Origin: an uncultured Gemmatimonadota bacterium
Lineage (GTDB): Bacteria; JAAXHH01
NCBI GenBank assembly: GCA_951812955.1
Contig: OX638340.1
Span: 1,568,001 to 1,632,000 of the forward strand
Reading direction: 5' to 3'
Length of the DNA: 64,000 bases
A model generated the notes under the pieces. It was not told where the DNA came from. It did not search any database and saw only the letters and a list, made by a program, of their open reading frames with translations. A program made the position numbers and the translations under genes. Shown here one piece after another: positions 8,232-59,921 of this stretch (position 1 is its first letter; each line of letters starts with the position of its first letter).

Positions 8232-9218
8232 ATGACGGAGGTGGACATGTCACCCATTACCGATGAGCAGATGGCATTCTTCAAAGACCAGGGATACCTG
8301 ATGGTGAGGGGGTTGCTGGATCAGGAGGAAGTACTCGATCCCGTGATCGAGGAATACGGTACCGTGCTCGATCAGTTGGCGGAAGAGCTTTTCCTGGCGG
8401 GTAAAATCGAATCGAAATACGAAGATCTGCCATTTGGCGAACGCATCACGAAAGTCTGGGGTGAAAGCGGCAAGGTCCATGCCCAGTGTTTCGATTTCAC
8501 CCTGCCCCAGGGCAACATCAAGGAAGACACGCCGTTCTGGTGCGGTCCGGCGGTGTTCAACGTCCTGACAGATCCGCGGCTGCTCGACGCCGTGGAGGCC
8601 TTCATCGGCCCCGAAATCTACTCCAACCCGGTCCAGCATGTACGCATCAAGCTTCCTGAACACTTGACGCCCATCAATCCGGCGACTGGGCGCATTCAGC
8701 TCGGCATATCCCCGTGGCACCAGGACAACGGCGTCGTCACGAAGGAGGCCGATGACACCCACATGCTCACGGTCTGGTTCTCGCTGAGGGAAGCGACGAT
8801 CGAACAGGGATGCCTCACCGTCATTCCCGAAAGCCACCGCGACGGCCTGCTGCACCACTGCCCTGACATCTGGGGCCTCGAAATTCCCGAGAAGGTGAAG
8901 GACCGGTCCGCCGCCGTTCCCATGCCGACCAAGCCCGGTGACGTCCTGTTCCTGCACAAGCACACCTGCCACTCGTCGCTGCCCAACAAGAGCAACGAGA
9001 TCCGGTGGAGCTACGACCTGAGGTACAACCCGATCGGCCAGGCCTCCGGACGGGGCGCCTTCCCGGGATTCGTGGCCCGCAGCCGGACCAATCCAGAGTG
9101 GGTCCTGACCGATCCCGTCGCGTGGAACCAGATGTGGCTGGATGCCAGGGACGCCCTCGCCGGCATGCCCAATCCGTCCTTCAACCGCTGGAGCAAGGAT
9201 CACGAAATCTGCGCGTGA
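8232..9218 (+). CDS. Phytanoyl-CoA dioxygenase (PhyH) family Fe(II)/2-oxoglutarate-dependent oxygenase
   Basis: PhyH-type HxD..H facial triad (WHQDNG ... HKHTCHSS) and the typical N-terminal FFKDQGYLMV motif. Confidence 0.8.
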   Translation: MTEVDMSPITDEQMAFFKDQGYLMVRGLLDQEEVLDPVIEEYGTVLDQLAEELFLAGKIESKYEDLPFGERITKVWGESGKVHAQCFDFTLPQGNIKEDTPFWCGPAVFNVLTDPRLLDAVEAFIGPEIYSNPVQHVRIKLPEHLTPINPATGRIQLGISPWHQDNGVVTKEADDTHMLTVWFSLREATIEQGCLTVIPESHRDGLLHHCPDIWGLEIPEKVKDRSAAVPMPTKPGDVLFLHKHTCHSSLPNKSNEIRWSYDLRYNPIGQASGRGAFPGFVARSRTNPEWVLTDPVAWNQMWLDARDALAGMPNPSFNRWSKDHEICA

Positions 9219-13107: not shown

Positions 13108-13377
13108 CGTCCCCTCGGTGCGTTCGAGGCGTTTTTAACATGCGACGCGCCGGCCTCGGCCTCCCGACGAACCCCTCGAAAAGCAGTTGCTCTCCCGATC
13201 TTCAATCCATTATATTGGCCTGCTTGCTTGACGGCACCTGACCGGGGTCGCGACGGCGCTGAGATCCCGCACGGTGACATCCGCACGTCGAACGATCAGG
13301 ATGTCGAATCAAACTGGGTGTTGAACGATCCGGAAGTAGAACCATCGCCCGGGAACCGGGGACCATCGGAGGCACAA

Positions 13378-14325
13378 GTGCGCATAGCGGTATTCGGTAC
13401 AGGAGGCGTAGGCGGCTACTATGGAGGACGGCTTGCCGAGGCAGGAGAGGAAGTCGTATTCATCGCACGCGGCGAGCATCTGGAAGCCCTGCGGCAGAAC
13501 GGCATCCGCGTGGAAAGCACGAAGGGTGATTTCACGCTGCCCTCCATCGAAGCCATCGGGGATCCAAGGGAAGCCGGCGACGTGGACGTCGTCATGCTTT
13601 GCGTCAAGTGCTGGCAGGTGCCCGAAGCCCTCGACGGTCTCCGGCCCTTGCTCGGACCCGATACCTGTATCCTGCCCATGGAGAACGGGGTGGAGACGCC
13701 GGAGCAACTCGCCGCGGAGTTCGGCTGGCGGCACGTACTCGGCGGCGTCTGCGGGATCGTCTCGTTCATCGCCGAACCGGGTCTCATCCGGCATGTCGCC
13801 TACGAACCATTTGTCAATTTCGGGGAATGGGACAACCGCAGCAGCGAACGGGTCGACCGGTTGCGCCTGGCATTCGATCGCGCCAGGGGACTCATCGTCG
13901 ATACGCCGCCGGATATTCAGGCCGCCATGTGGCGCAAGTACATCCTCATCGCTTCGTGGAGCGGGATCGGCGGCGTGACCCGCGCGCCGATTGGCATCGT
14001 CCGCAGCCAGCCCGGCACCCGGCGGCTCCTCGAGACGGCCATGGAGGAGATCCACCGCGTGGCCACCGCCGTGGGCATCAGCCTGCCGGACGACATCGTA
14101 GCCCGGACCCTGGCCATTCTGGACAGCGTCGAATACGGCGGCACCGCCTCCATGCAGCGGGATATCATGGAAGGTAGATTCTCCGAGTTGGAAGCCCAGA
14201 CTGGCGCGCTGGTCCGCATGGGCAGGGAAGCGGGCGTGCCCACGCCGGTCAACGATTTCGTGTACCATTCGCTGCGGCCGATGGAACTTCGAACCCGAAA
14301 GCAGGTATCCTTCGAGACGCCCTGA
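13378..14325 (+). CDS. panE: 2-dehydropantoate 2-reductase (PanE/ApbA family ketopantoate reductase)
   Basis: N-terminal Rossmann VRIAVFGTGGVGGYYGGRLAEAG and the ApbA C-terminal domain. GTG start at 13378 is preceded by a GGAGG RBS at a 5-nt spacer; the ORF is open upstream to 13228. Confidence 0.75.
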   Translation: MRIAVFGTGGVGGYYGGRLAEAGEEVVFIARGEHLEALRQNGIRVESTKGDFTLPSIEAIGDPREAGDVDVVMLCVKCWQVPEALDGLRPLLGPDTCILPMENGVETPEQLAAEFGWRHVLGGVCGIVSFIAEPGLIRHVAYEPFVNFGEWDNRSSERVDRLRLAFDRARGLIVDTPPDIQAAMWRKYILIASWSGIGGVTRAPIGIVRSQPGTRRLLETAMEEIHRVATAVGISLPDDIVARTLAILDSVEYGGTASMQRDIMEGRFSELEAQTGALVRMGREAGVPTPVNDFVYHSLRPMELRTRKQVSFETP

Positions 14326-14386
14326 GTCGCGGGCAGTATACATTCAGGGTCCGGAGTCGCGGGCAGTATCGTTTCAGGCGCACTGT

Positions 14387-14612
14387 GGCGCCCGGGGCGC
14401 GACCCGAGACGATCCGAGACGACCCGAGACTCATCTGACGACCGAGGCGCGATGTGGCGCCCGGGGTACGACCCGAGACTCATCTGACGACCGAGGCGCA
14501 CTGTGGCGCCCGGGGTACGACCCGAGACTCATCTGACGACCGAGGCGCGATGTGGCGCCCGGGGCGCGACCCGAGACGACCCGAGATGATCCGAGACACA
14601 TCTGACGACCGA
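14387..14612. repeat. Four tandem copies of a 49-bp repeat (GGCGCRMTGTGGCGCCCGGGGYRCGACCCGAGACTCATCTGACGACCGA); the two outer copies carry an extra 10-20 bp of nested GACCCGAGAC sub-repeat
   Basis: Read directly. Units at 14387-14445, 14446-14494, 14495-14543 and 14544-14612. Preceded by two AGTCGCGGGCAGTAT copies at 14326-14369. Ends 24 bp before the corrinoid-locus start codon. Confidence 0.9.
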
Positions 14613-14635
14613 ACCGGCCTGCCGGAGCAACCCGC

Positions 14636-15634
14636 ATGAAGTCATTTCTTGAACGCATTGCCGACGATCGTCCCCTCCTTTACGACGGCGGTTTCGGCAC
14701 CGAGCTCTTCGTCCGGGGCATCGAACTGGCCAACAGCGCACTGGCCAACGAACTTTACCCCGACATTGTCAGAGACATCCATTTCGATTATATTGAAGCA
14801 GGCGCGGAAGTGGTGGGAACGAATACGTTCGTGGCGTCTTATCCCCATCTCGAAATGGCCGGGAAGGACGCCTCGGAATCCGAGCAGCTGATCCGGCTTT
14901 CCTTGGAACACGCCCGAGCCGCCATCGAGCGAAGCGGCAGGGAGGTGTACCTGGCCGGTTCCATCGGACCATTGCCGGGCGCCATCGAGGCCGACAGCGG
15001 CGACACGGAGTTCGGCATTGCCAACAGCATCGCCCGGGACGCCCACGAGCGCGTGGGAACGGTCCTGGCGGCAGGCGGGGTGGATTTCTTCTGTGTCGAG
15101 ACCATGTTCTCCGCCAACGAGGCGGCCCTGGCCATCGACGTATTGAGGCAGTTCGGCCTGCCCATCGCCGTGAACCAGACGTACAAATATACGAAGGACC
15201 GCGCCACGGGCGAGGTCGTTTACAAGACCGACTGGGGTCATTCGGCAGCCGATCTCCTGGAGATCCTGGCAGGCGGCGCGCAGTCTGGCGGTGGCGACCT
15301 GCTCGAGCATGTGCAGATCGTCGGCCTGAACTGCGGGGCGGAATCCCGGCGCGACGAGCACACGGGCATGCCTTACGCCATCAGCGGCATCGGCCAGTTG
15401 AAACGCGCCATGGAAGCCAGGGCAGAGGAACCGAAACGCATGATGGCCTACCCGAACGCCGGGAAGGCGCGTCTCGATGAGCAGCACCGGACCTATTACG
15501 ACAATACCCCGGAAGAGATGGCGGCCTCCGTACCGAATCTCCTCGAGGCCGGCGCTTTCTTCATCGGCGGCTGCTGCGGCACGGGCGTCGCCCACATCCG
15601 GGCCTTCCGCGAAGCGATGGACAGGATGGCATGA
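14636..15634 (+). CDS. Homocysteine S-methyltransferase-domain protein (MetH N-terminal / BHMT / MmuM type, Pfam S-methyl_trans), zinc-dependent thiol methyltransferase
   Basis: Signature motifs LYDGGFGTEL, VGTNTF, GLNCG and GGCCGTG (the Cys triad for Zn), in the order expected for the Hcy-binding barrel. Confidence 0.85.
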   Translation: MKSFLERIADDRPLLYDGGFGTELFVRGIELANSALANELYPDIVRDIHFDYIEAGAEVVGTNTFVASYPHLEMAGKDASESEQLIRLSLEHARAAIERSGREVYLAGSIGPLPGAIEADSGDTEFGIANSIARDAHERVGTVLAAGGVDFFCVETMFSANEAALAIDVLRQFGLPIAVNQTYKYTKDRATGEVVYKTDWGHSAADLLEILAGGAQSGGGDLLEHVQIVGLNCGAESRRDEHTGMPYAISGIGQLKRAMEARAEEPKRMMAYPNAGKARLDEQHRTYYDNTPEEMAASVPNLLEAGAFFIGGCCGTGVAHIRAFREAMDRMA

Positions 15635-15900
15635 CGAAGTACCAGGTTCTTTACTGGCGTGACATTCCGGCGCAGGTGCGCGTCTACGGAGGACGGCGTC
15701 CACTTTCACGCCAGATGCCCGACTGGTTCCAGCAGGAAATCGACCGGGTGGCCATGCGGGACGGACTCACTGGTACCGACGCCTACCTGGACGAGTGGCA
15801 CTGGTCTGAAAAACAGGAATGGACCGGCGAAGAGAAAGAACCCGATACGGTGGCGGAAGCCATTTTGAAGCGGCTCGAAGACGGGTTCGACAAGGGATAA
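15631..15900 (+). CDS. Small hypothetical protein (89 aa), translationally coupled to the upstream methyltransferase
   Basis: Its ATG overlaps the upstream stop in an ATGA junction at 15631-15634. Coding-like GC3. No family assigned with certainty. Confidence 0.55.
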   Translation: MTKYQVLYWRDIPAQVRVYGGRRPLSRQMPDWFQQEIDRVAMRDGLTGTDAYLDEWHWSEKQEWTGEEKEPDTVAEAILKRLEDGFDKG

Positions 15901-16034
15901 AACCGGACGCGACGGGCAAGGAGCAAATGCGGCGGGCAGTTATCAAGTCCGTCCGCAACCAGCCACAGCAATGGTCGGACGCGACGGGCAAGGAGCAGGA
16001 CCGGGCAGCATCGAAAACGTAAGAGGCGGCAGAT

Positions 16035-16673
16035 ATGGGTCAAACAGTCGACATAGGCAGGCGCATCGAACTGGTTCCGCTGGATCCCCATTTCGGGGAC
16101 ATATCCATCGGTCTTTACCGCCAGCACGACGATACCGGGCCGGTCTACCAGGTATACACCTACAGCCGGCGGGAAGGCGTCGAGGACCGTATCGCCTTTG
16201 TGGTAAAGGCCATGGGAGTACTGGGCGGGATGGAACAGGCCAGCGGCGGACGCCTTCGGTTCCCCTGCGGCCATGAACATCACATGGGGGTAAAGCGGGT
16301 GTTTCTCGAAGCCTGCAAGCTGGACCCTGCCGGCCCCGCGGAACCGCGGCCCCTGGAGATCCTCGACAAGAAATCGGGCCTTCAAATCCAGGTCCTGAGC
16401 GAGGGAGACGGCGTGTATCGCGTCACGGCCCATGGGGAAGGCAAGGACCGCGAGCGTCGCATTTCCTTCATCGCCGGTGGTCTGATGAAGCTGGCCGAGA
16501 TAGACGAGGTAAGCGGCACGCTGGACCAGGTGGTTTTTCCCTGCGCCCGTGTCCACGACGCGATGATCGGGCAATTGCTGGTCCGCGCGCCGAACGTCCG
16601 GGCCGTCCTGCGCGAGCAAGAGGCCGTGCTGAGTAGGGGCGTCCTGGCGGCGCCCAGCCAGCAGGATGGTTAG
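16035..16673 (+). CDS. Hypothetical protein (212 aa) inside the corrinoid methyltransferase locus; possibly DUF1638-like (unverified)
   Basis: AAGAGG RBS 9 nt upstream of the ATG and strong GC3 codon bias. Same strand as the locus. The opposing 667-aa ORF is judged a shadow. Confidence 0.5.
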   Translation: MGQTVDIGRRIELVPLDPHFGDISIGLYRQHDDTGPVYQVYTYSRREGVEDRIAFVVKAMGVLGGMEQASGGRLRFPCGHEHHMGVKRVFLEACKLDPAGPAEPRPLEILDKKSGLQIQVLSEGDGVYRVTAHGEGKDRERRISFIAGGLMKLAEIDEVSGTLDQVVFPCARVHDAMIGQLLVRAPNVRAVLREQEAVLSRGVLAAPSQQDG

Positions 16674-16751
16674 TAGTAACCATAGAGCCCGAATGATGAC
16701 TACGCGATCACGCGATCGTCGAAAGCTCGATCGATCGATAAGGAGGCAGTC

Positions 16752-17795
16752 ATGAGCGACGACCTCATCAGGGAGATGAAGGGCCGGGATCGGGTGCTGG
16801 CCGCCCTCAGGCGGGAGCCCGTGGATCGCACGCCCGTATGCAATCCGACGTCTGTCGCCACGGTGGAGCTGATGGACCTGGTCGACGCCCCCTTTCCGGA
16901 TGCCAACCGGGACCCGGAACTGATGGCCCGGCTGGCGGCCACCGGGTACACCGAGCTGGGTTTCGACAGCATCATGCCGGTCTTCACCATTATCCAGGAA
17001 TCCTCCGCGCTGGGCTGCAAGATCCAGTGGGAGCAAAAGGACAACTGGCCCACGGTTAAGATGCGCGAGCCTATCTGGGAAGACGTGGACGACATCAACG
17101 TCCCGTCCGATTTCCTTACGCACCAGGACACGAAATGCGTCCTCGACGCCATCAGCCTGCTCAAAAAGGAATACGGCGACGAGGTGGCCATCATCGGCAA
17201 GACCATGGGGCCGTGGTCGCTGGGTTACCACTGCTTCGGCGTGGAGCCCTTCCTGCTCATGTCCCTGGATGACCCCGGGAAGACCCACCTCGCCCTCGAC
17301 CGTATGAAGGAGGCCACAGTGGAGTTCGGCATCGCGCAGATCGAGGCCGGGGCGGACGCCCTGACCCTGCCGGACCACGCCACGGGCGACCTGGTGAGCG
17401 GCGAGTATTACCGGCGGTTCCTGAGGGACCTGCACATCGAACTCGTCGAACGGATCCCCATCCCGCTGATCATGCACATCTGCGGAAGGACCGTGGACCG
17501 CATGGGCTACATCGCGGAGACCGGCTTCGCAGCCTTTCACTACGATTCGAAAAACAAGCCCCAGGAATCCATGGAGGCCGTGGACGGCCAGATATCCCTC
17601 GTGGGCAACATCAACAACCCCGAGACGCTCTTCGCACGGGGTCCCGAAGAGGTGACCGGGGAAGTTTGCAGAAACCTGGAGCACGGGATTCACATGGTGG
17701 GACCGGAATGCGCGGTACCCCTCCAGGCGTCCATCGAGAACCTGAAGGCGATCCCCCAGGCCGTGAAAGACTGGCACCGCACACACGCGGCTTGA
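16752..17795 (+). CDS. MtaA/CmuA-type methyltransferase of the uroporphyrinogen decarboxylase (URO-D) family (methylcobamide-dependent methyltransferase)
   Basis: URO-D fold motifs (RTPVC, MPVFTII, IHICG). AAGGAGG RBS. Adjacent to the corrinoid protein, which is the usual context for MtaA-like rather than HemE enzymes. Confidence 0.85.
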   Translation: MSDDLIREMKGRDRVLAALRREPVDRTPVCNPTSVATVELMDLVDAPFPDANRDPELMARLAATGYTELGFDSIMPVFTIIQESSALGCKIQWEQKDNWPTVKMREPIWEDVDDINVPSDFLTHQDTKCVLDAISLLKKEYGDEVAIIGKTMGPWSLGYHCFGVEPFLLMSLDDPGKTHLALDRMKEATVEFGIAQIEAGADALTLPDHATGDLVSGEYYRRFLRDLHIELVERIPIPLIMHICGRTVDRMGYIAETGFAAFHYDSKNKPQESMEAVDGQISLVGNINNPETLFARGPEEVTGEVCRNLEHGIHMVGPECAVPLQASIENLKAIPQAVKDWHRTHAA

Positions 17796-17936
17796 GGCGC
17801 AAAGGAGTCAGCTGTACGCGAGGCGCAAAGGCCACGCATTGAAAACGGGATCAGCCGCAGCGGCCGGTGCGGTCCGACTCACCGCGCGGCAGGCGGCAAA
17901 ATCGGCATGAACCAGGGAGGACCGGGAAGAAGCGCA

Positions 17937-18700
17937 TGGCAGAACTCAACGATATAGCCAACGACTTTCTTAAAGACGAAATAGAAGAGTTCATCGAAAG
18001 ACCCAACGAGCGGACGCGGATCATCGATGCCTTCGCCCGGGCGACGCCGGCCATGCAGGAGATCTCCGCGGCGCTCATCGACGGGGACAACGGCACGGTC
18101 GACACGCTTACCCGGGCGGCGCTGGACGATGGTATCGAGGCCCTGGAGGTGATGGACGACGGCCTGATCAACGGCATGAGCATCGTGGGCATCAAGTTCC
18201 GGGAGAACTTCATCTTCGTCCCGGAGGTCCTGGCCTGTGCCCGCGCCATGAAGGCCGGCATGGCCCACATCGAACCCATTCTCTCCGCCTCGGGCATCCA
18301 GCCGGTCGGCAAGGTCATCATGGGCACGGTCAAGGGCGACCTTCACGACATCGGTAAAAACCTGTGCATCATGATGCTGCGCGGCGCCGGGTTCGTGGTC
18401 CATGACCTCGGTGTAGACACCTCCGAGGACGAGTTCATGGACGCCGTGGAGGAACACGAAGCCCCCCTGGTGGGCATGTCGGCCCTGCTCACCACGACCA
18501 TGCCCAACATGGGCAAGACCATCGACGCTTTCATCGATAACGACATGCGTGAAGACGTAAAGATCATGGTGGGCGGCGCGTCGGTCACCCAGGAGTTCGC
18601 CGATGACATGGGCGCCGACGGCACCGCCGAAGACGCGGTTGGATGCGTGGAACTGGCCAACCGCCTCCTCGTGGAACTCAAGCAGGAACAGGAAGCCTGA
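17937..18700 (+). CDS. Corrinoid (cobalamin-binding) protein, MtaC/MtbC/MetH-B12-domain type
   Basis: N-terminal B12-binding_2 cap helix bundle followed by a Rossmann B12-binding domain with the DxHxxG motif (GDLHDIGKN) and MVGG. An alternative GTG at 17867 is less likely. Confidence 0.85.
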
Positions 18701-18845
18701 GTAAGTTAATCGCACCTCACGGCCTGGCGGACCGGCGGTCCGATCCCGTTTCGGCGCGGGTGGTTAAGTGGCACGGCCGGGAAAGCAGCCGGGCTGGCAG
18801 ATTGGCGCGGCTGGCCGCAGCAGGATCCCTTCCCTACATTAATCC

Positions 18846-20873
18846 ATGAAAAAGATCGACAAGGCGGCGTACCAGAAGCGCCTGGACCGCATCACGGCCA
18901 TCTTCAAGGACATGATGGCTCACGCGACAGAACAGGCCACCTACCGCTGCCCATACAAAAACCGTTTTGACGAATGTACCGCCCGGTTCGGGTGCCGTAA
19001 CCAGCGCAAACCGAGGGAAGCCGGCGGCCTGCTCATGTGCGGAGGGGACGACAAACTCGACTACCGCGGCGCATGGGAGACGGAGGAAGCCCCGCACGAA
19101 AGACCGGAGCAGGTACATACGACGGATCAAAAACCGGACGCACGCCCGTCTGCGGTGCGAGAAGATGTTGTGGCTACGAGCATGGATGAAGCAGATCGTA
19201 CAGGACGGGCCGCGCCGAATGTGACCATGGATACGTCCTCAGATCCACCCGGCGGCACGGTAACCGACGGCACGACGACCCGGCCCGCGGTCATCGGCAA
19301 ATCCATCTTCGATTACGCCGACGACCTCGCCGTCCAGGTGCCCACCTCCTGTTTCCGCAACGGCATATGTCACGAGTGCATCGTGGAAATCAAACAAGGG
19401 ATGGAAGGGCTCGTGCCCAGGTCCAAGCCGGAATCCTTCCTGCGCGAGAACTACCGGCTCGCCTGCCAGGCGCGCGTGATCGACCCCAATGTGGACATCG
19501 CCTTCGCTCCGCTCCGCCGAACGCCCAAGATCCTGACCGTTACCGAAGAAAAGGAAACGCCGCTCGATCCCCTGGTCACCCGGCGGGGCGATGACATCTT
19601 CTACGACGGCGAGCAGGTCGACCTGTTCCGCGGACACGTGTACGGGCTCGCGATCGACCTGGGCACGACCACGGTGGTCATGGATTTCGTGGACCTGGAG
19701 ACCGGCCGGAGCGTCCACGTCTGTTCCTTCGAGAACCCCCAGCGCTTCGGCGGCAGCGACGTGATGCACCGCATCTCATACGACGGCGGGTTCGAGGACG
19801 AACTCTGGAACGCCATCATCAACGCCGTCAACCACGAGATCATGGACTGGTGCGAGCGGACGGAAACCGCGCGGCAGGAGATCTACGAGATCGTCGTGGC
19901 GGGCAACTCCACCATGCGCGACCTCTTCTTCCGCCTCGACGTACAGAGCATCGGCCAGAAACCCTACAAGTCGCAGATCGAAAACGAATACCTCGCGGGC
20001 GAACGAGATACCACGGCGCTGACCATCGGCACCCGGCGGCTCGGCCTGCGGGCCAATCCAAAGGCCCGTGTCTACGGCCTGCCCATTATCGCCAGCCACG
20101 TGGGCGGCGACGTGACGGCCGACCTGGCCACCGTCGACCTGGCTGCGCGGCCGGGCGTATCCATGCTGGTGGACGTGGGCACCAATACCGAGGTGGTCGT
20201 GGCAGGCAACGGACGCATGGTCACGGCTTCGTGCCCCGCCGGTCCCGCCTTCGAGGGCGGCGGAATCAAGTACGGCATGCCAGGCTACGAAGGCGCCATT
20301 GAAACATTGAAGTGGGAAGACGGGCGGTTCGACTGGCGCACCATCGGAGACTCCGCGCCCCAGGGCATCTGCGGCTCCGGGCTGATCGATCTCCTCGCCG
20401 AACTGCGCCGCCACGGCATGATGAGCCCGAAGGGGGTGTTCCCCGACCGGAAACAATTCGAGGTGCCCGTCGTAGCCGAATCCGGCATCACCCTGTCCCG
20501 GCAGGACGCCAGCAACCTGGCCCAGGCCAAGGCAGCCAACTACTGCGGCCAATACATCGTCCTCCGCGCCTTCGGCGTCGCGCCGGGCGACGTGGACCGG
20601 CTCTTCCTTGCGGGCGGTTTCGCCAACTACGTGGACGTGCGAAACGCCATCGACATCGGGTTCCTGGCCCCCGTGCCCGAAGACCGCATCTTCAAGGTCG
20701 GCAACGCCGCCGTCCAGGGTGCCCGGGAGATCCTCCTCTCCCGTTCGCGCCGCAAGGAAATGGAAACGCAGGTCAAGGACATCGAGCACATCGAGCTCGA
20801 GACTACCCCCGACTTTTTCGAGATCTTCGTCGAAGCCTGCCAGTTCAAGCCTATGCCGGGCGTGCTGGTGTAG
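18846..20873 (+). CDS. RACo-type reductive activator of corrinoid proteins ([2Fe-2S] ferredoxin domain plus ASKHA ATPase) with an unusual ~135-aa N-terminal extension
   Basis: Plant-type ferredoxin Cys pattern (CFRNGICHECIV ... LACQARV), then an ASKHA/DUF4445-like region (GLAIDLGTTTVV, VDVGTNTE, ICGSGLIDL). Start is uncertain; in-frame ATGs at about 19182 and 19227 are alternatives. Confidence 0.8.
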   Translation: MKKIDKAAYQKRLDRITAIFKDMMAHATEQATYRCPYKNRFDECTARFGCRNQRKPREAGGLLMCGGDDKLDYRGAWETEEAPHERPEQVHTTDQKPDARPSAVREDVVATSMDEADRTGRAAPNVTMDTSSDPPGGTVTDGTTTRPAVIGKSIFDYADDLAVQVPTSCFRNGICHECIVEIKQGMEGLVPRSKPESFLRENYRLACQARVIDPNVDIAFAPLRRTPKILTVTEEKETPLDPLVTRRGDDIFYDGEQVDLFRGHVYGLAIDLGTTTVVMDFVDLETGRSVHVCSFENPQRFGGSDVMHRISYDGGFEDELWNAIINAVNHEIMDWCERTETARQEIYEIVVAGNSTMRDLFFRLDVQSIGQKPYKSQIENEYLAGERDTTALTIGTRRLGLRANPKARVYGLPIIASHVGGDVTADLATVDLAARPGVSMLVDVGTNTEVVVAGNGRMVTASCPAGPAFEGGGIKYGMPGYEGAIETLKWEDGRFDWRTIGDSAPQGICGSGLIDLLAELRRHGMMSPKGVFPDRKQFEVPVVAESGITLSRQDASNLAQAKAANYCGQYIVLRAFGVAPGDVDRLFLAGGFANYVDVRNAIDIGFLAPVPEDRIFKVGNAAVQGAREILLSRSRRKEMETQVKDIEHIELETTPDFFEIFVEACQFKPMPGVLV

Positions 20874-21122
20874 GGTGGATTGTCGACCTCGGGTATTCTA
20901 TACTAGATCTGGGATGGGAATTCAACTATTGCTATAGATCGGGTTAAAGTACTCACTGATGCATGTTCAGCCTGAGGCCTCCACAAAGAAATCATCGGTT
21001 CGAAAGGTCTGCATTTTGAGTTCCTGAATGTATTGTGATGTCTTTTATGTTGCGTGTTTTCAATATGTACAGTATTCGTTAGAAATATAGATAGTGGTGC
21101 CAACATTTTCATCGAGATTGCT

Positions 21123-21347
21123 ATGCGTCGATTCAAGATCATTGTTGAAGAACATCAGGATGGTTACGTAGCGTATCCATTAGGGCTCTCCGGAATAGTT
21201 GTTGGCCAGGGTGATACGTACGACAACGCGGTAGCGGATGTCAAATCTGCTATAGAATTCCATATCGAGAGCTTTGGAACAACGGTATTTGAGGAAGAAT
21301 CTGACGTTCTTCGCGCTTTCGTCACTGATGCGGAGTTCGTAGACTGA
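21123..21347 (+). CDS. hicB: HicB-like antitoxin (UPF0150 family)
   Basis: MRRFKIIVEEHQDGYVAYPLGLSGIVVGQGDTYDNAVADVKSAIEFHIE matches the HicB/UPF0150 pattern. Lies in a low-GC region. Confidence 0.6.
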   Translation: MRRFKIIVEEHQDGYVAYPLGLSGIVVGQGDTYDNAVADVKSAIEFHIESFGTTVFEEESDVLRAFVTDAEFVD

Positions 21348-21541
21348 TGGCAGGTTTTCCTGTCGACGCACCTCGTCAACGAGTTAAACGTACTCTGAGC
21401 AAACTGGGATTCAAGGTCGTCCGTGAAGGCAATCATATAAACAGTTCTTGTTTCCGCTCTATGCGGAATTACTGTAGTCCATGGCTTTGTTGCCAGCAAC
21501 TCGCTGAGATTCCCCCCTATCGGATATTCCAAAAACACTGA
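21347..21541 (+). CDS. hicA: HicA-like toxin candidate (YcfA family N-terminus), possibly degenerate in its C-terminal half
   Basis: RVKRTLSKLGFKVVREGNHI resembles the HicA dsRBD-like start, but downstream the sequence loses the conserved HP...VP...G motifs. Overlaps the hicB stop in a TGATG junction. Confidence 0.35.
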   Translation: MAGFPVDAPRQRVKRTLSKLGFKVVREGNHINSSCFRSMRNYCSPWLCCQQLAEIPPYRIFQKH

Positions 21542-21550
21542 ACCCGCAAA

Positions 21551-22495
21551 ATGTTCCACCTCCGTCCCGCCCGTCCCTCGTCCGATGAATCGGGCATCGC
21601 TTCCGTCGTCAACGCCTTCGAACAGAATCCGGTTTCAGTAGATACCGTACGCGAGTGGCTGACCCATGGTGCGCCGGGCAGAATCAGCTATCGCCAGGTG
21701 GCTGTGACCCGTGACGACGTCGTTGCAGGTTACGCGGTGTCGGTGCATGAAACCTGGAATCCGGAAGGGCAGTTCTATGCCTGGGTGGGCGTGGCGCCTG
21801 CGTGGCGGGGACGAGGTATCGGCTCAGCGCTGTACATAGACTTGATGCAATTTCTGGAGCAACACGACGCCGGTACGATTACGAGCGAGGTCCGGGACGA
21901 CTGCGCCATCTCGCTGGCATTCGCCGAGCGACACGGATTCGAAAAAGACCGGCATCTGTTTCAGTCGAGCCTGGACCTCGAAGCCTTCGACGAATCACCC
22001 TATCTGGGCACGCTTGGCGGAGTCGCCGAGGCGGGTATACGTGTGCGCTCAATTGCGGATTTCGGCGACACGCCGGACGCTCGCAGGAAACTCTACGAAG
22101 TCAACGCGATAACCGACCAGGACGTGCCTGGCTGGATCGGACCCGGGCTTTCCTTTGAGGAATTCAACGAGTGGGTGTACGTTTCGGAATGGTACCGGCC
22201 GGATGGCCAGTTGCTTGCGGCCGATGGGGATCGCTGGGTCGGGATCTGTGCGGTGCGGCTATACCCCGATGCGTGCCTGGCCTTCAACGTGCACACCGGG
22301 GTGATCCGGGCGTATCGAAAGCGTCATGTCGCGGTGGCGCTGAAACTGGCCGCGATTCGCTATGCCAGGAATCAAGGCGCGCGATCACTCAGTACGCACA
22401 ACGATTCGATGAACGGCCCCATGCTGGCGCTCAACCGGAAATTAGGTTATGTCCCGGAGCCGGGACGGTATACGCTGCGTGGGACGATGACCTGA
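21551..22495 (+). CDS. GNAT family N-acetyltransferase (tandem GNAT-like domains)
   Basis: Acetyl-CoA binding motif AWRGRGIGSALY and a second GNAT-like half. Confidence 0.75.
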   Translation: MFHLRPARPSSDESGIASVVNAFEQNPVSVDTVREWLTHGAPGRISYRQVAVTRDDVVAGYAVSVHETWNPEGQFYAWVGVAPAWRGRGIGSALYIDLMQFLEQHDAGTITSEVRDDCAISLAFAERHGFEKDRHLFQSSLDLEAFDESPYLGTLGGVAEAGIRVRSIADFGDTPDARRKLYEVNAITDQDVPGWIGPGLSFEEFNEWVYVSEWYRPDGQLLAADGDRWVGICAVRLYPDACLAFNVHTGVIRAYRKRHVAVALKLAAIRYARNQGARSLSTHNDSMNGPMLALNRKLGYVPEPGRYTLRGTMT

Positions 22496-22575
22496 AGCCC
22501 TCCGGTACATCTCAGTCATTCAATTCGAGAATGAAGTCCTTTCCAGGCTCACGACACGCAGAACGCGGACGCCCC

Positions 22576-22977
22576 TTACCCTCCCATCATCGCAATACGC
22601 CGTGCCATCCACTCTACGTAGGCCGTACGTGTCATTCCCCGCCTGTCTGCCTCGCTATCTATAAACACCGCCACGCCTTCGTCAATCGCCATATGTATGC
22701 GCACGCTACGCCCGGACTGACGGATTAACGGCACTGTCGTCAGGGCCTCTCCCGGCTCTGTACTAACCTGCTCCAGTTTACTTGGTTGGATTACCCTGTC
22801 CCCATCAGTTTCCGTTTCAATTACGTAATCTCGTAGTGCTTCTTCAGCGTTCAGCAATGCCTCGTCGATGGTGTCGCCCATAGCGGCGATTCCTGGAAGA
22901 TCCGGGAAGGATACGCCATAGGCACCCATTTCACCATCTATCAATGCCGGATATCGGATAGCATTAAATACCTGCAT
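22576..22977 (-). CDS. hicB: HicB family antitoxin with C-terminal ribbon-helix-helix-like DNA-binding region
   Basis: YPALIDGEMGAYGVSFPDLPGIAAMGDTIDEALLNAEEALRDY is a classic HicB N-domain. Immediately downstream of the hicA gene on the minus strand. Confidence 0.75.
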   Translation of the reverse strand: MQVFNAIRYPALIDGEMGAYGVSFPDLPGIAAMGDTIDEALLNAEEALRDYVIETETDGDRVIQPSKLEQVSTEPGEALTTVPLIRQSGRSVRIHMAIDEGVAVFIDSEADRRGMTRTAYVEWMARRIAMMGG

Positions 22978-23001
22978 GTCTGAACCCTCCTACATCAAGG
23001 A

Positions 23002-23244
23002 CTAGATCTGCCAGTTTGCTTTCTTCGCAATGGTTCGTACGACACCTGGCGATATTCTCCTGTGTCTCGGCAGCGTAATTACACCTCGATTACATGGATG
23101 GCGGTAAACGTCATGCTTGGCCCCATGCCGGAACAGGTACCAACCTTCCTTTTTAATCGTCGCTCGATTTTGGTCGTGTTGGATTCCATTAAGCCACGCA
23201 ATTTTGTGCAAATATATGCACATAATGAGTTTCTTGTCAATCAT
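23002..23244 (-). CDS. hicA: HicA family mRNA interferase toxin
   Basis: KKEGWYLFRHGAKHDVYRHPCNRGVITLPRHRRISPGVVRTIAKKANW matches the HicA/YcfA pattern (G-W, HP, TVP, G-T-L). Confidence 0.65.
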   Translation of the reverse strand: MIDKKLIMCIYLHKIAWLNGIQHDQNRATIKKEGWYLFRHGAKHDVYRHPCNRGVITLPRHRRISPGVVRTIAKKANWQI

Positions 23245-23339
23245 TTCTTATTCAGTCGAGTTTCTTGTTAAAACCTCGACTAATGGAGTAATGACACCGT
23301 GGTGGACACAGCCAGTGCGAGATGTACATACGCGGAGTA

Positions 23340-23352
23340 TCTACATTGTAGA
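23340..23352. promoter_or_regulatory. Perfect inverted repeat TCTACA-T-TGTAGA just upstream of the mazE RBS; candidate MazE/MazEF autoregulatory operator
   Basis: Palindrome read directly from the sequence. AGGAGG RBS at 23356-23361; mazE ATG at 23367. Confidence 0.45.
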
Positions 23353-23366
23353 CACAGGAGGCTCGA

Positions 23367-23606
23367 ATGAAATCCCGTGTGAAGAAATGGGGCAACAGCC
23401 TGGCACTTCGCATCCCGAAACCTGTCACGGTCCAGATGGGCGTCAAGGACGATTCACCCGTTGTACTCGTGCTCCGGGGCAAGGAATTGACCCTTGTACC
23501 GTTGGAACGAACTCATCTGAAACTCCCCGAGTTGCTTTCGGGCATCTCGAGACATAACCTGCACGGAAGAACTAGCATCGGAAGCCCCGGTGCCGGTGAA
23601 GCATAA
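23367..23606 (+). CDS. mazE: MazE/PemI-type antitoxin (SpoVT/AbrB swapped-hairpin domain)
   Basis: KKWGNSLALRIPK motif. Sits immediately upstream of the mazF-like gene. Confidence 0.75.
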   Translation: MKSRVKKWGNSLALRIPKPVTVQMGVKDDSPVVLVLRGKELTLVPLERTHLKLPELLSGISRHNLHGRTSIGSPGAGEA

Positions 23607-23962
23607 TGGGTACAACGACCTACGTACCCGTTCGGGGCGAGGTGGTGTGGGTCTACTCCCGAGCGCGGGAGGGATCATACCTGCCTTCGAGGCGTCCCGC
23701 CGTTACCATATCTCCCGAACCCTACAATCGTCGGACCGGCCTGGCTCTTTTCTGCCCGGTCACTGGCGAAGAGAAGGGATATCCCTTCGAAGTCAAGATT
23801 CCACCCGGACTGCCGGTGCCCGGGGTTATCCTGTCCGATCAGTTGGAAAGCGTGGACTGGCGATCCGGTGCGATGGAACGGATCTGTGCGCTGCCCTCGG
23901 AGACGATGGATGAAGTCCTCCGAAAATCCGCGGCGCTGCTCGATGGGGAAGACCGGCCTTGA
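23606..23962 (+). CDS. mazF: MazF/PemK family endoribonuclease toxin
   Basis: YVPVRGEVVWV ... RRPAVTISPEPYNRRTGLALFCPVTGEEKGYPFEV matches PemK/MazF. Overlaps the mazE stop in a TAATG junction. Confidence 0.8.
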   Translation: MGTTTYVPVRGEVVWVYSRAREGSYLPSRRPAVTISPEPYNRRTGLALFCPVTGEEKGYPFEVKIPPGLPVPGVILSDQLESVDWRSGAMERICALPSETMDEVLRKSAALLDGEDRP

Positions 23963-29933: not shown

Positions 29934-30437
29934 ATGATCGACGCCAGCCGGAAATTTCTCTTCGCCATCGCCGCCACGCTGCTCGTGGTTACACTTAGCG
30001 TTTCGGGCGAACTCTCGGAGGCCGTCCCGGAGCCCCCGGTCGACGCACCAACGGGCGCATCAGCCAACAAACCCATCCAGGTAGACTGGAACCTCCTGTC
30101 CAGCCTCAACTACCGTACCGGCAAACCAAGCGCGGAGTTGGCGGCGCTCGATGGCAAATTCGTAAAGGTCCCCGGATTTACGGTAACGCTTGAAGACTGG
30201 GCGTCCTCTGCGAAGGAATTCCTCCTCGTTCCCTATGTCGGCGCCTGCATCCACACGCCCCCGCCCCCGCCCAACCAGCTCGTCTACATAGAGATGGTGA
30301 AGGGCAAATGGGCGTTTCTGGACGGGTGGAACCCGGTGTGGGTCGAGGGCGTACTCAAGATCGAGATGACCAAGAGCGTGTACGGCCCCGTCGGCTTCAC
30401 CATCACCGGCCAGCGGGTCTATCCGTACGAGTACTGA
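29934..30437 (+). CDS. Secreted DUF3299-like protein, encoded upstream of a MacB/FtsX-type ABC transporter
   Basis: Signal peptide, then VPYVGACIHTPPPPPNQLVYIEM, which is characteristic of DUF3299. Gene neighbourhood with an ABC ATPase and FtsX permease. Confidence 0.6.
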   Translation: MIDASRKFLFAIAATLLVVTLSVSGELSEAVPEPPVDAPTGASANKPIQVDWNLLSSLNYRTGKPSAELAALDGKFVKVPGFTVTLEDWASSAKEFLLVPYVGACIHTPPPPPNQLVYIEMVKGKWAFLDGWNPVWVEGVLKIEMTKSVYGPVGFTITGQRVYPYEY

Positions 30438-30584: not shown

Positions 30585-31268
30585 ATGAGTTTCACAGTCG
30601 ACGTCCGACGCCTGCGCTTCCGCTACGGAGGCGGCCCCTGGGTGTTGGACATCCCCGAGTTGACCCTCGAGCGGGGGACACGCGCGTTCCTGTTCGGTCC
30701 CAGCGGCAGCGGCAAGACGACGCTACTCGGTGTGCTGGCGGGGGTCCTGGAAGCGACTGAGGGCGAGATCAGGGTGCTGGGCGAAGACCTTGCCTCACTG
30801 TCGGGAGCACGGCGGGACGCCTTCCGGGCGGAGCACATCGGCTATGTCTTCCAGATGTTCAACCTCATCCCCTACCTGTCGGTGCTCGACAATATCGCCC
30901 TTCCTGTTCGCATGCACGCGGGGCGCCGGGCCCGGCTGGACGGCAAGGGTGTGAAGGAGACCGCCGCGCTGCTTGCCGAACACCTCCAGATCGGAAACCT
31001 GCTGGATAACCAGGTGACCGAACTTTCGGTGGGACAGCAGCAAAGGGTTGCGGCCTGCCGTGCGCTCATCGGGGCCCCGGAGCTCATCGTCGCCGATGAA
31101 CCGACCTCCTCCCTGGACTTCGACCGCCGCGAGGCCTTCCTCGATCTGCTCTTCCAGGAATGCGAGCGTGCCGGCGCAACGTTGGTGTTCGTGAGCCACG
31201 ACCGCACGCTGGAGGGCAAGTTCTCCCGCACCATCTCGCTTCCCGACATCAACAAGGCGTTGCGCTGA
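30585..31268 (+). CDS. ABC transporter ATP-binding protein (MacB/LolD-like)
   Basis: Walker A GPSGSGKTT, signature LSVGQQQR, Walker B LIVADEPT. Confidence 0.85.
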   Translation: MSFTVDVRRLRFRYGGGPWVLDIPELTLERGTRAFLFGPSGSGKTTLLGVLAGVLEATEGEIRVLGEDLASLSGARRDAFRAEHIGYVFQMFNLIPYLSVLDNIALPVRMHAGRRARLDGKGVKETAALLAEHLQIGNLLDNQVTELSVGQQQRVAACRALIGAPELIVADEPTSSLDFDRREAFLDLLFQECERAGATLVFVSHDRTLEGKFSRTISLPDINKALR

Positions 31269-32731
31269 TGGTGATTCTGGACCTCGCGCTCAAGTCGCTC
31301 CGCAACCGCGCCTTCAGCACCTCGCTCACGGTAGGCTCCATCGCCCTCAGCGTCGCCCTCATGATCGGCGTCGAGAACGTGCGCATGGGCATGCGCGAGA
31401 GTTTCTCAAACACCATCAGCCAGACCGATCTGATCGTCGGTACCAAGGGCGGCACGATTCAGTTGCTATTGTATTCGGTCTTCGGCTTGGGATCACCCAC
31501 GGAGAATGTTTCGTGGGAGGCCTACAGGCAGTGGGCGGAGCATCCCGCGGTCGCTTGGACCATCCCATACAGTCTTGGGGACAGTCACAGAGGATTCCGG
31601 GTCATCGGCACGAACCAGGACTTCCATCGTCACTACCGCTACCGCGGAGGTCAGGAAATCGCGCTGGCGGAGGGAAGGGCGAACGTGGATCTATTCGATG
31701 TAACCCTGGGCGCGGACGTGGCAGCCGAGTTGAATTACGCGTTGGGCGACGAGATTGCGGTGACGCACGGGCTCGGTGAGGTGGGTTTCCTGAACCACGA
31801 CCACATGCCCTTCACGGTCGTGGGCGTCCTCGCCAAGACATTCACCCCCGTTGACCGAGCGATCTACGTGTCCCTCGAGGGCATGGAGGCCATCCACTGG
31901 GAGGGCGGTGCCCCTCCGGCGTCGGACGACGAACACGTCCACGATGAGACGGATGCGGCCACCGCGGACGATGGACACGTCCACGATGAGGCGGATGCGG
32001 CCACCGCGGACGATGGACACGACGAAGAGGCGGATGCGGCCACCGCGGACGATGGGCACGACGAAGAGACGGATACGGCCACTGCGGACGACGAACACGT
32101 CCACGATGAGGCGGATGAGGCCACCGCGGACGATGGGCACGACGAGGCGGTGGATTTTTCGATCGAGGATGTCGAAGTCAGGCAGGTGACGTCGTTCTTC
32201 GTGGGGATGACCAGCCGCCGGGACGTGCTACAACTGCAGCGCCAGATCAACGATTTCGAGAACGAGCCCATGATGGCCGTGATCCCCGGAGTCGCCCTGA
32301 ACGAGATGTGGCAGGGCCTGGGTTACGCCGAGACCGGCCTCCGGCTGGTGACCATCTTCGTCGTGTTGGTAGGGTTACTGGGCATGCTGGTCTCACTCTA
32401 CACGTCGCTTAACGAGCGCCGACGGGAAATGGCGATCCTGCGCGCCGTCGGGGCGGGACCCAACCGAATCGTCTCACTGCTGGTGCTCGAGTCGGTGTGC
32501 CTGTCCGCGGCGGGAGCCATCGGCGGACTCGCCCTGGTTTACATGTTGCTCTCAGCCGGACAGTCGTTTGTCGAGGCGCAAGTCGGGCTCTACATTCCGA
32601 TCCGGCCCCCCGGCTCAATCGAATTCCTCTACCTGGCCGCCGTGGTGACGGCCGGATTCGTGATGGGCTTCGTGCCCGCACTCAAGGCCTACCGCACGGC
32701 ACTCCATGACGGACTGTCGGTACGGGTGTAA
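31268..32731 (+). CDS. FtsX-like ABC transporter permease (MacB-type periplasmic domain) with a His/Asp-rich tandem-repeat insertion
   Basis: N-terminal TM plus MacB_PCD-like region, then C-terminal FtsX 3-TM bundle (MAILRAVGAGP ...). ATG overlaps the upstream stop. The repeat insertion lies at 31925-32155. Confidence 0.8.
   Translation: MVILDLALKSLRNRAFSTSLTVGSIALSVALMIGVENVRMGMRESFSNTISQTDLIVGTKGGTIQLLLYSVFGLGSPTENVSWEAYRQWAEHPAVAWTIPYSLGDSHRGFRVIGTNQDFHRHYRYRGGQEIALAEGRANVDLFDVTLGADVAAELNYALGDEIAVTHGLGEVGFLNHDHMPFTVVGVLAKTFTPVDRAIYVSLEGMEAIHWEGGAPPASDDEHVHDETDAATADDGHVHDEADAATADDGHDEEADAATADDGHDEETDTATADDEHVHDEADEATADDGHDEAVDFSIEDVEVRQVTSFFVGMTSRRDVLQLQRQINDFENEPMMAVIPGVALNEMWQGLGYAETGLRLVTIFVVLVGLLGMLVSLYTSLNERRREMAILRAVGAGPNRIVSLLVLESVCLSAAGAIGGLALVYMLLSAGQSFVEAQVGLYIPIRPPGSIEFLYLAAVVTAGFVMGFVPALKAYRTALHDGLSVRV
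31925..32155 (+). repeat. In-frame tandem repeat (about 5.5 units of 39-42 bp) encoding His/Asp-rich repeats HVHDEADAATADDG in the periplasmic domain of the FtsX permease
   Basis: Read directly. Encoded peptide is DDEHVHDETDAATADDGHVHDEADAATADDGHDEEADAATADDGHDEETDTATADDEHVHDEADEATADDGHDEAVD. Confidence 0.85.
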
Positions 32732-33216: not shown

Positions 33217-33301
33217 GGTGGGGTGTCTGAGTGGCCGAAAGAGACGGTCTTGAAAACCGTTGTACCTTTGCGGGTACCGTGGGTTCGAATCCCACCCCCA
33301 C
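33217..33301 (+). tRNA. tRNA-Ser (anticodon TGA), type II with long variable arm
   Basis: Manually folded. Acceptor GGTGGGG/CCCCACC, D-stem GTCT/AGAC, anticodon stem ACGGT/ACCGT with loop CTTGAAA, T-arm GTGGG-TTCGAAT-CCCAC, discriminator G. CCA is not encoded. Confidence 0.85.
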
Positions 33302-33325
33302 CGTCCAACGGCTCTGGAGATCATT

Positions 33326-33417
33326 CCGGAGAGGTGCGAGAGTGGCTGAATCGGATCGACTGCTAATCGATTGTGGGTCAAAAAACCTACCGAGGGTTCG
33401 AATCCCTCCCTCTCCGT
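33326..33417 (+). tRNA. tRNA-Ser (anticodon GCT), type II
   Basis: Manually folded. Acceptor GGAGAGG/CCTCTCC, anticodon stem ATCGA/TCGAT with loop CTGCTAA, T-arm GAGGG-TTCGAAT-CCCTC, discriminator G. Confidence 0.85.
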
Positions 33418-59706: not shown

Positions 59707-59921
59707 GGGGACTCCTGGTTCTTCGGGCGTATTCGCAGGAAGGACGTTTCATCCGGAGGTTTGGAAAACAGGCAACAACATATAACTGGAAGCCGCGGGT
59801 GTCAACCACGCCGGTCCGCGTGTTACCGCCGTCATTGACGGGCCCGTTCGGTATATCTATATTCGCGGTACGTTTCGACACGCGATTTACCTTTACGAAC
59901 CCTGATTCAGCCAGGCAGAAA

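Follow-up and report, generated by a model that had tools for sequence, protein, structure and literature searches.

A candidate B12-dependent methyl-transfer locus with MtaA-like and homocysteine-binding enzymes in an uncultured Gemmatimonadota bacterium

Gene content of the corrinoid locus

We examined a six-gene locus in the genome of an uncultured Gemmatimonadota bacterium (GenBank assembly GCA_951812955.1, contig OX638340.1). It lies in a 64-kb stretch of this contig (positions 1,568,001 to 1,632,000 of the forward strand; hereafter, the window) in which 63 genes were called. An initial annotation had described a corrinoid methyltransferase cassette here, with a homocysteine (Hcy)-binding enzyme standing in for the usual pterin-binding methyltransferase. 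We confirm the observation behind that annotation and find its interpretation partly supported. The six open reading frames (ORFs), g13 to g18, occupy positions 14636-20873, all on the + strand. They are spaced by -4, 134, 78, 140, and 145 nucleotides (nt), with the ATG at 17936 taken as the start of g17, and all six have a high third-position G+C. This spacing, together with profile scans against Pfam and NCBIfam, bears out the description of six co-oriented genes; the same scans provide the family assignments given below.

The first gene, g13 (14636-15634, + strand, 332 amino acids (aa)), matches PF02574 (E=5.8e-50) and is predicted to encode a stand-alone, Hcy-binding zinc methyltransferase of the type of MtgE or of the Hcy module of a split methionine synthase (MetH). 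The initial annotation had picked out its GLNCG and GGCCGTG motifs, and in solved MetH structures the residues aligned with C233 of the first and C313/C314 of the second are zinc cysteines. MetH Hcy domains are also its closest solved structures (E~1e-21), followed by MmuM (5DML, 8e-17) and BHMT (1e-11). Among NCBIfam models, the top match is the Hcy-methyltransferase half of a YitJ-type bifunctional enzyme (148 bits), and the equivalog scores all fall under their cut-offs (NF006396, 148 versus 453; NF005718, 121.9 versus 338; NF007020, 117 versus 215). Judged by its family, g13 would be the only recognizable methyl-acceptor module in cis, and to this extent the earlier view of the Hcy-binding barrel as the sole candidate acceptor holds.

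The start of g14 (15631-15900, + strand, 89 aa) overlaps the g13 stop by 4 nt. Its product belongs to PF13769 ("Virulence_fact," E=5.5e-16) and is probably an accessory protein; in relatives, the PF13769 gene directly follows a pterin-binding or Hcy gene. The initial annotation had counted g14 and g15 as two small proteins of no known kind, a description that fits g15 but not g14.

The fourth gene, g16 (16752-17795, + strand, 347 aa), matches the URO-D family (PF01208, E=6e-67) and appears to encode a zinc methyltransferase of the MtaA/CmuA family, within the UroD superfamily. It passes two models at this level (TIGR01463 mtaA_cmuA, 242.8 against a cut-off of 235.4; PRK06252, 258.2 against 244), whereas the hemE model TIGR01464 gives only 67.3 against a cut-off of 303. 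At the equivalog level it stays under the cut-offs, with 234 versus 400 for MtaA_Meth and 196 versus 600 for MtbA. The HxC and C motifs stay in register in an alignment to MtaA of Methanosarcina mazei (4AY7, E=1.8e-52) that runs from end to end of the protein. None of the 121 sequences compared departs from the zinc ligands H242, C244, and C320, and all 120 homologue clusters listed are at least 79% identical. The scores, the 4AY7 alignment, and the invariant ligands refute the idea that g16 is hemE, as the initial annotation had anticipated in calling it MtaA/CmuA-like.

The zinc site also bears on the methyl donor. CmuA, which takes a methyl group from chloromethane, falls in the same family model as g16. 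Within the UroD superfamily, a His-Cys-Cys site marks the S/Se-methyltransferases, and in O-demethylases carboxylates or non-coordinating residues replace the cysteines (PMC10418091). Because g16 has the S-type site, and given the halide precedent of CmuA, the likely donors are methyl thioethers, methyl selenides, or methyl halides, while methoxylated aromatics and methylamines would be unlikely.

The gene between g14 and g16, g15 (16035-16673, + strand, 212 aa), represents an undescribed family. It has no Pfam or NCBIfam match, and none appears even at E<=10 for 40 members of the family. A search found 1079 homologues; among the 120 listed, none belongs to a Pfam family, and the named ones are called "hypothetical protein." The family is rare, with 271 matching clusters at 50% identity among 1.84 billion representatives. 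Two FPCxxxH motifs contain the five invariant residues, C78, H82, C170, H174, and D175, and the tail at the C-terminus is conserved as well. A confident AlphaFold2 model (predicted local distance difference test score of 88) has a twofold beta-beta-beta-alpha repeat, an internal duplication, and searches for structural relatives gave none that was convincing. That g15 may hold a Cys2His2 metal site is a reasonable guess from the invariant residues. We considered g15 as a divergent DUF1638 protein, which is of the same size and has a similar neighborhood, and rejected this at an hhalign probability of ~0.1.

In all 85 of the loci compared below, g15 is the gene directly preceding g16, and in one database ORF (P0442) a g15-like part runs into an MtaA-like N-terminus. 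By this linkage, g15 appears to be a strictly linked partner of g16. Both this partnership and the S-type His-Cys-Cys site of g16 were missed earlier.

The last two genes encode a predicted corrinoid protein and its predicted activator, as the initial annotation had recognized. The ORF of g17 opens at a GTG at 17867; from the ATG it spans 17936-18700 (+ strand) and encodes 254 aa, the length at which its relatives are called. It carries the cap and B12 domains PF02607 and PF02310 with the DxHxxG motif (D135, H137, and G140; DLHDIG), and its best NCBIfam matches, under cut-offs, are MtgC-type corrinoid proteins. The product of g18 (18846-20873, + strand, 675 aa; PF00111, PF17651, and PF14574) would be an ATP-dependent reductive activator of the RACo/RamA type. 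A 2Fe-2S ferredoxin domain (Fer2, with cysteines C169, C175, C178, and C207) is joined in a single chain to Raco_middle and RACo_C_ter (ASKHA) domains, and AcsV- and RamA-type NCBIfam models match under their cut-offs. The N-terminus of g18 (18846-19350) has an extra four-Cys stretch (C35, C44, C50, and C65), followed by a low-complexity linker before the ferredoxin domain. This stretch matches no Pfam family; its cysteines might bind a further metal.

Related loci and the pterin-binding gene

The initial annotation had noted no pterin-binding domain at the locus, and none is present in the entire window. A Pfam scan of all other called genes found no PF00809, MtrH, MttB, or MtaB. Three pterin-binding proteins of related clusters, used as queries in six-frame tblastn, likewise had no match in the window, a negative that extends 14.6 kb to the upstream side of the cluster and 43 kb to the downstream side. 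Among the best 120 relatives (to 61% identity) of a related pterin protein, drawn from 5.8 billion proteins, no contig of the window's clade appears, a weak negative because the comparison took in the best 120 matches only and, for contigs, cluster representatives only.

A scan of one genome per species returned 521 relatives of g16. The best 80 of these belong to metagenome-assembled genomes (MAGs) labeled Poribacteria, Latescibacterota, Gemmatimonadota, Opitutales, Acidobacteriota, and "Moanabacter." Going by the isolate names alone, many look like sponge-metagenome bins. The g16 of the window is 99% identical to those of a Gemmatimonadetes-labeled bin and of the complete MAG OY762445.1.

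We compared gene order by mapping the six window proteins onto 85 loci. The six-gene set is found as in the window in 20 loci (21 with the window itself), while 24 carry g15-g16-g17-g18 followed by further genes downstream of the RACo gene. Poribacteria contribute 40 loci with g15-g16 only, and one locus is truncated after g17. Corrinoid and RACo genes therefore follow g15-g16 in 44 of the 85 loci, with the truncated one ending past its corrinoid gene. The 20 compact six-gene loci comprise 17 from the window clade, one from a second Gemmatimonadota lineage (L028), and two from Opitutales genomes. Because it recurs in three lineages, the compact order, which has neither a pterin nor an MTHFR gene, is a stable unit.

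Most of the longer loci, which belong to other marine MAG lineages, have both. A 534-aa fusion of MTHFR with a MetV-like PF12225 domain follows the RACo gene in 23 of 24, and a 345-aa PF00809 pterin-binding protein is encoded in 21 of 24, followed by PF13769 and Hcy methyltransferase genes. This pterin protein is closest to models of methyl-tetrahydrofolate:corrinoid methyltransferases. The claim that the Hcy enzyme takes the place of the pterin-binding one thus fails in the wider family. A divergent GntR/FCD regulator precedes g15 in at least 24 loci whose cluster also has the MTHFR gene, and this context looks like an inducible operon for methyl-group catabolism.

In one Poribacteria genome (OZ242354.1), the parts are far apart. 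The g15-g16 pair sits at 1.58 Mb (1574310-1595350), next to the dcw cell-division cluster. Corrinoid, RACo, MTHFR/MetV, pterin, and PF13769 genes lie at 5.86 Mb (5857942-5878976), beside the genes for citrate synthase, isocitrate dehydrogenase, and malate dehydrogenase.

Because relatives carry MTHFR and pterin genes, and because parts are scattered in this Poribacteria genome, the absence of a pterin gene in cis is not proof of folate independence, and the system is not intrinsically folate-independent. Of the folate-independent route from corrinoid to Hcy that the initial annotation had suggested, the pterin-free window stands; the relatives are folate-linked, and the step from absence in cis to independence does not follow. 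The synteny search proposed alongside it has a similarly divided outcome: the compact arrangement does recur in three lineages, but 24 loci carry further genes, mostly for MTHFR and the pterin-binding protein. On this gene content, these bacteria generally have a split methionine synthase that is linked to folate, and g15-g16 is attached to it, physically in some cases but not in others. The window arrangement would then be a compact derivative that has neither pterin nor MTHFR genes.

A cultured soil member of the Gemmatimonadota, Gemmatirosa kalamazoonensis KBS708, has an independent parallel cluster on its plasmid 1 (6731-12918 within NZ_CP007129.1 912576-937472, a record without annotation). 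Its genes encode, in order, a URO-D methyltransferase, an apparent fusion of a corrinoid protein with PF13769, a RACo protein, a 403-aa protein without a family assignment, and an Hcy methyltransferase. Pfam identifies the URO-D, B12, and Hcy domains, and the RACo gene is assigned only by 46% tblastn identity to g18. This URO-D methyltransferase does not have the His-Cys-Cys site, and the pterin-protein queries found no match in 25 kb. The PF13769 match at the corrinoid C-terminus is weak (E=1.1e-4; 22.9 bits, under the 25-bit cut-off); if the fusion is real, it suggests that PF13769 works at the corrinoid protein.

Duplication and naming of these genes deserve mention. The Acidobacteriota contig CBDFLD010000014.1 carries two g15/MtaA-like/corrinoid/RACo copies ~60 kb apart (347745-362233 and 284474-305514), with the same identities to the window proteins. 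In Azoarcus KH32C plasmid pAZKH and in the S. meliloti record CP090106.1, annotation gives the name "dihydropteroate synthase" to the pterin-binding subunit of such clusters and "virulence factor" to the PF13769 proteins. In split-MetH/Mtg-type clusters both names are probably misleading, and our comparison corrects them as likely mis-annotations. The S. meliloti record is labeled pSymB; its size of 3.7 Mb suggests a chromosome.

Surroundings of the locus in the window

The cluster is not a recent island in the window clade. Its G+C of 0.62-0.64 is the same as in the rest of the window, and it keeps the same neighbors throughout its clade; since this context is kept in close relatives, we rejected a genomic island. 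Upstream lie an NagB/LmbE fusion and a bona fide panE (13228-14325). The latter passes the 2-dehydropantoate reductase equivalog and, although its upstream position is conserved in two lineages, we treat it as an unrelated neighbor and not as a functional member of the cluster.

The 310-nt gap between panE and g13 holds the repeat array behind which the initial annotation had placed a self-contained accessory module. The array exists: a 49-bp unit is repeated in tandem 3.2 times, with 94% matches, at 14419-14577, flanked by 10-bp CGACCCGAGA sub-repeats (14400-14597). It is matched in part by the closest relative, L007, and not found in other relatives, in which the gap is ~44 nt. It is therefore a strain-level variable-number tandem repeat that says nothing about the cassette, and we rejected it as a cassette part. 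With a G+C like that of the surroundings and conserved neighbors as well, the idea of a self-contained module behind the array was not upheld.

An Rfam scan found no riboswitch or other RNA in or before the cluster at the gathering threshold; within 14200-21200, relaxing the limit to E<=1 brought up none either. The sole Rfam matches of the window are a pair of neighboring tRNA genes (33217-33416, + strand). Promoter and terminator sites were no more numerous than in shuffled sequence, so that scan is uninformative on co-transcription.

Directly downstream of the cluster (21054-23962), a GNAT acetyltransferase gene and two toxin-antitoxin pairs (HicA/HicB-like and MazE/MazF) have a lower G+C of 0.55-0.58; close relatives have these genes after the cluster as well. 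Farther on, an FtsX/MacB-like permease (31160-32731) has a periplasmic part with five His/Asp-rich repeats, DDGH(V)HDE(A/T)DAATA, and a DUF3299 protein is encoded near it (29934-30437). This region may represent a metal-binding or metal-export system. The window also contains three genes of the PhyH type (Fe/2-oxoglutarate dioxygenases; 8232-9218, 52254-53042, and 59799-60749), and a further one lies inside related Poribacteria clusters (13977-14774 of locus L039). These genes suggest that the bacteria use oxygen and that the gene family has expanded in them.

A candidate methyl relay and its relation to known systems

Starting from the domain identities, catalytic motifs, and conserved gene linkage observed here, we infer a relay between proteins. 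In this proposal, to which we give about an even chance, the locus is a B12-dependent methyl relay built on a split-MetH (Mtg-type) chassis that moves a methyl group from a sulfur, selenium, or halide donor through the B12 protein to Hcy. In its favor, four of the six genes correspond to split-MetH/Mtg genes that have been shown genetically to make methionine (PMC5764234, PMC12478193). The conserved gene linkage, the recurrence of the compact order, the parallel cluster in Gemmatirosa, and the His-Cys-Cys site of g16 speak for it too. The corrinoid protein g17 would carry the B12 cofactor, and g18, with ATP and its 2Fe-2S cluster, would regenerate Co(I) from inactive Co(II) by reduction, keeping g17 active. 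The g15-g16 pair would demethylate a methyl thioether, methyl selenide, or methyl halide and thereby load Co(I)-g17. On g13, Hcy would be activated at the Cys3 zinc site and take the methyl group from methyl-Co(III)-g17, yielding methionine, while g14 would act as an accessory protein at the corrinoid protein. In sum, the relay would carry out CH3-X + homocysteine -> HX + methionine, and no step encoded in cis would use folate. The pterin-binding methyltransferase and MTHFR of other lineages would let the methyl group enter or leave the folate pool too.

Within this relay, flow through g16 could run in either direction. We lean slightly toward g16 as the input, because the GntR/FCD regulator and MTHFR context in relatives looks catabolic. 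It could instead be the output, since the canonical MtaA reaction runs from methyl-Co to a thiol and since g15-g16 stands alone in Poribacteria. This is one of several points that weigh against the relay as proposed. Because split-MetH subunits are scattered in Phaeobacter and Ruegeria too, this genome may encode a pterin-binding subunit elsewhere, or else a complete MetH or MetE. The Poribacteria layout, with 40 loci of g15-g16 alone and at least one genome with the relay genes 4 Mb away, looks like a folate-dependent methionine synthase with a housekeeping role, for which g15-g16 is optional. In the Pfam scan of the window, no neighboring transporter or catabolic gene points to a methyl donor.

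The main rival is that the locus is an ordinary split methionine synthase, an alternative that we consider somewhat improbable but substantial. Here 5-methyl-tetrahydrofolate would be the donor, through a pterin subunit encoded elsewhere, and g15-g16 would methylate a thiol in the MtaA direction, as a methyl sink or in biosynthetic S-methylation, or would serve another corrinoid protein. Relatives with pterin-binding and MTHFR genes in the same cluster speak for it, as do the scattered parts in Phaeobacter and Ruegeria and the Poribacteria genome in which corrinoid, RACo, MTHFR, pterin, and PF13769 genes accompany genes of the tricarboxylic acid cycle while g15-g16 is elsewhere. The known reaction of MtaA, the relative of g16 represented by 4AY7, is likewise a transfer from methyl-Co(III) to coenzyme M (CoM). 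What argues against an ordinary split enzyme is the conservation of the compact, pterin- and MTHFR-free order in three lineages, the GntR/FCD and MTHFR linkage that looks catabolic and not biosynthetic, and, weakly, the fact that the 120 closest relatives of the related pterin protein include no contig of the window clade.

Two further explanations would dissolve the locus into unrelated neighbors. PF02574 also includes BHMT, MmuM, and YitJ enzymes, and the best NCBIfam match of g13 is of the YitJ type, so g13 might be a corrinoid-independent Hcy methyltransferase that uses betaine, S-methylmethionine, or S-adenosylmethionine beside an unrelated MtaA-corrinoid-RACo system. We think this very unlikely: the equivalog scores for these enzymes are far under their cut-offs, the nearest structures are MetH Hcy domains, and the S. 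meliloti "Bhmt" homologue has since been reinterpreted as the Hcy module MtgE (PMC12478193). In 33 of the 85 loci, from several phyla, an Hcy gene is also found no more than 10 kb away from corrinoid and RACo genes, with PF13769 linked as well and, in relatives, the split-MetH pterin module. That g16 is a genuine hemE brought next to the other genes by chance has in its favor that its Pfam family is URO-D; with the hemE score so far below its cut-off while the MtaA/CmuA model is passed, with invariant MtaA zinc ligands, and with a conserved linkage to corrinoid and RACo genes, we give it practically no weight.

A bolder version of the proposed relay can also be put forward, though we consider it doubtful. 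The six genes would be the lineage's only methionine synthase, drawing methyl groups through B12, with no folate, from a sulfur, selenium, or halide compound of the host or environment. In this version, g15 would be a new Cys2His2 metal protein that captures the substrate or presents it to g16, and the system would serve as a habitat-specific "methyl currency" shared horizontally among symbionts of several phyla.

If the relay proposed here is correct, these bacteria would need only B12 to turn Hcy and a methylated compound of sulfur (or selenium, or a halide) into methionine. A MetH-type route would join the known folate-independent methionine syntheses, and methyl-sulfur cycling would be tied to B12 demand in marine, apparently host-associated communities. 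The g15-g16 pair, with its methanogen-type enzyme in bacteria, offers a concrete and inexpensive target for biochemistry.

The closest known systems are the split methionine synthases. Fitness genetics in Phaeobacter inhibens assigned methionine synthesis to separate Hcy-binding, pterin-binding, and cap-plus-B12 proteins, along with a RamA-like DUF4445 protein and a DUF1638 protein (Price et al., PMC5764234). In the MtgBCDE system of Ruegeria pomeroyi, glycine betaine demethylation by the MttB-family MtgB also makes use of the corrinoid protein MtgC and the pterin protein MtgD (Mausz et al., PMC12478193), and the Hcy module MtgE is one of several methyltransferases that dock on one corrinoid protein (PMC12478193). 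The initial annotation stated that in described systems the methyl group goes to CoM or tetrahydrofolate; this no longer holds, as an Hcy module on a separate corrinoid protein has been published (PMC5764234, PMC12478193). The window shares with these systems a stand-alone PF02574 protein, a cap-plus-B12 protein with DxHxxG, and a RamA/RACo activator.

The PF13769 gene provides a fourth match. It occurs within the Mtg-type clusters of S. meliloti and of Azoarcus KH32C, the latter with corrinoid, DUF1638, MetV, MTHFR, pterin, and ASKHA genes. Compared with the proteins of these clusters, which in the two species combine corrinoid, MTHFR, pterin, and RACo genes, g14 is 44% (Azoarcus KH32C) and 43% (S. 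meliloti) identical, g17 is 44% identical to the corrinoid proteins, and g18 is 32-33% identical to the ASKHA proteins. The window differs in that its donor enzyme is of the MtaA/UroD type and not the MttB-family MtgB, in the extra partner g15, in having no DUF1638 (PF07796) gene by Pfam scan, and in that the stand-alone PF00809 subunit and MTHFR are missing both from the cluster and from the whole 64 kb.

On the donor side, the resemblance is to methanogens. MtsA and MtpA demonstrate that the fold of g16 can demethylate methyl thioethers onto Co(I). Like methanogen MtaA (4AY7) and MtbA, g16 keeps the His-Cys-Cys site, passes the MtaA/CmuA model, and is encoded beside corrinoid and activator genes, but it is under both equivalog cut-offs. 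The methylthiol enzymes MtsA and MtpA/MtpC are counted among the soluble CoM methyltransferases of methanogens (bioRxiv 10.1101/548461). The hosts here are bacterial MAGs, nothing in the window points to CoM, and the relay would end on Hcy (and folate in relatives) instead. The chloromethane dehalogenase proteins CmuA/CmuB of Methylobacterium (PMC3621897) likewise combine an MtaA-like zinc methyltransferase with a corrinoid domain, in an aerobe and for a small methyl donor. In CmuA, however, the methyltransferase and corrinoid parts are fused and unload to tetrahydrofolate through CmuB, and there is no Hcy module or g15-like gene.

Other UroD-superfamily systems are more distant. Type 1 mlp clusters of anaerobes have been proposed to act in methyl-sulfur or methyl-selenium metabolism (Kountz and Balskus, PMC10418091). 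Such clusters require two or more different Mlp paralogues (Mlp2 and Mlp3) and belong to obligate anaerobes (PMC10418091), whereas the window has a single UroD-family gene, in the cluster and overall; they are also without Hcy-binding, PF13769, and g15-like genes. The three-component O-demethylases (MtvABC, Odm/Vdm, and those of Desulfitobacterium; PMC3727330) share the plan of a UroD-superfamily methyltransferase I, a corrinoid protein, and an activating enzyme. Their methyltransferase I has its Cys replaced (PMC10418091), while g16 retains both, and they unload to tetrahydrofolate through a pterin-binding methyltransferase II, for which the window has no PF00809 counterpart.

A precedent for the output step comes from the core methionine synthases MesA, MesB, and MesC, which make methionine from methyl-corrinoid proteins without a methyl-folate intermediate (PMC7857596). 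These are MetE-type barrels (PF01717) of strict anaerobes that draw on MtrA or CoFeSP, in contrast to the MetH-type PF02574 barrel here. Our literature searches returned no description of an arrangement that joins an MtaA-like and an Hcy enzyme, nor of PF13769. Placing an Hcy module on a three-component corrinoid system is not new in itself; what appears to be new at this locus is the S-type, MtaA-like donor enzyme, the g15 partner family, and the compact order without a pterin gene.

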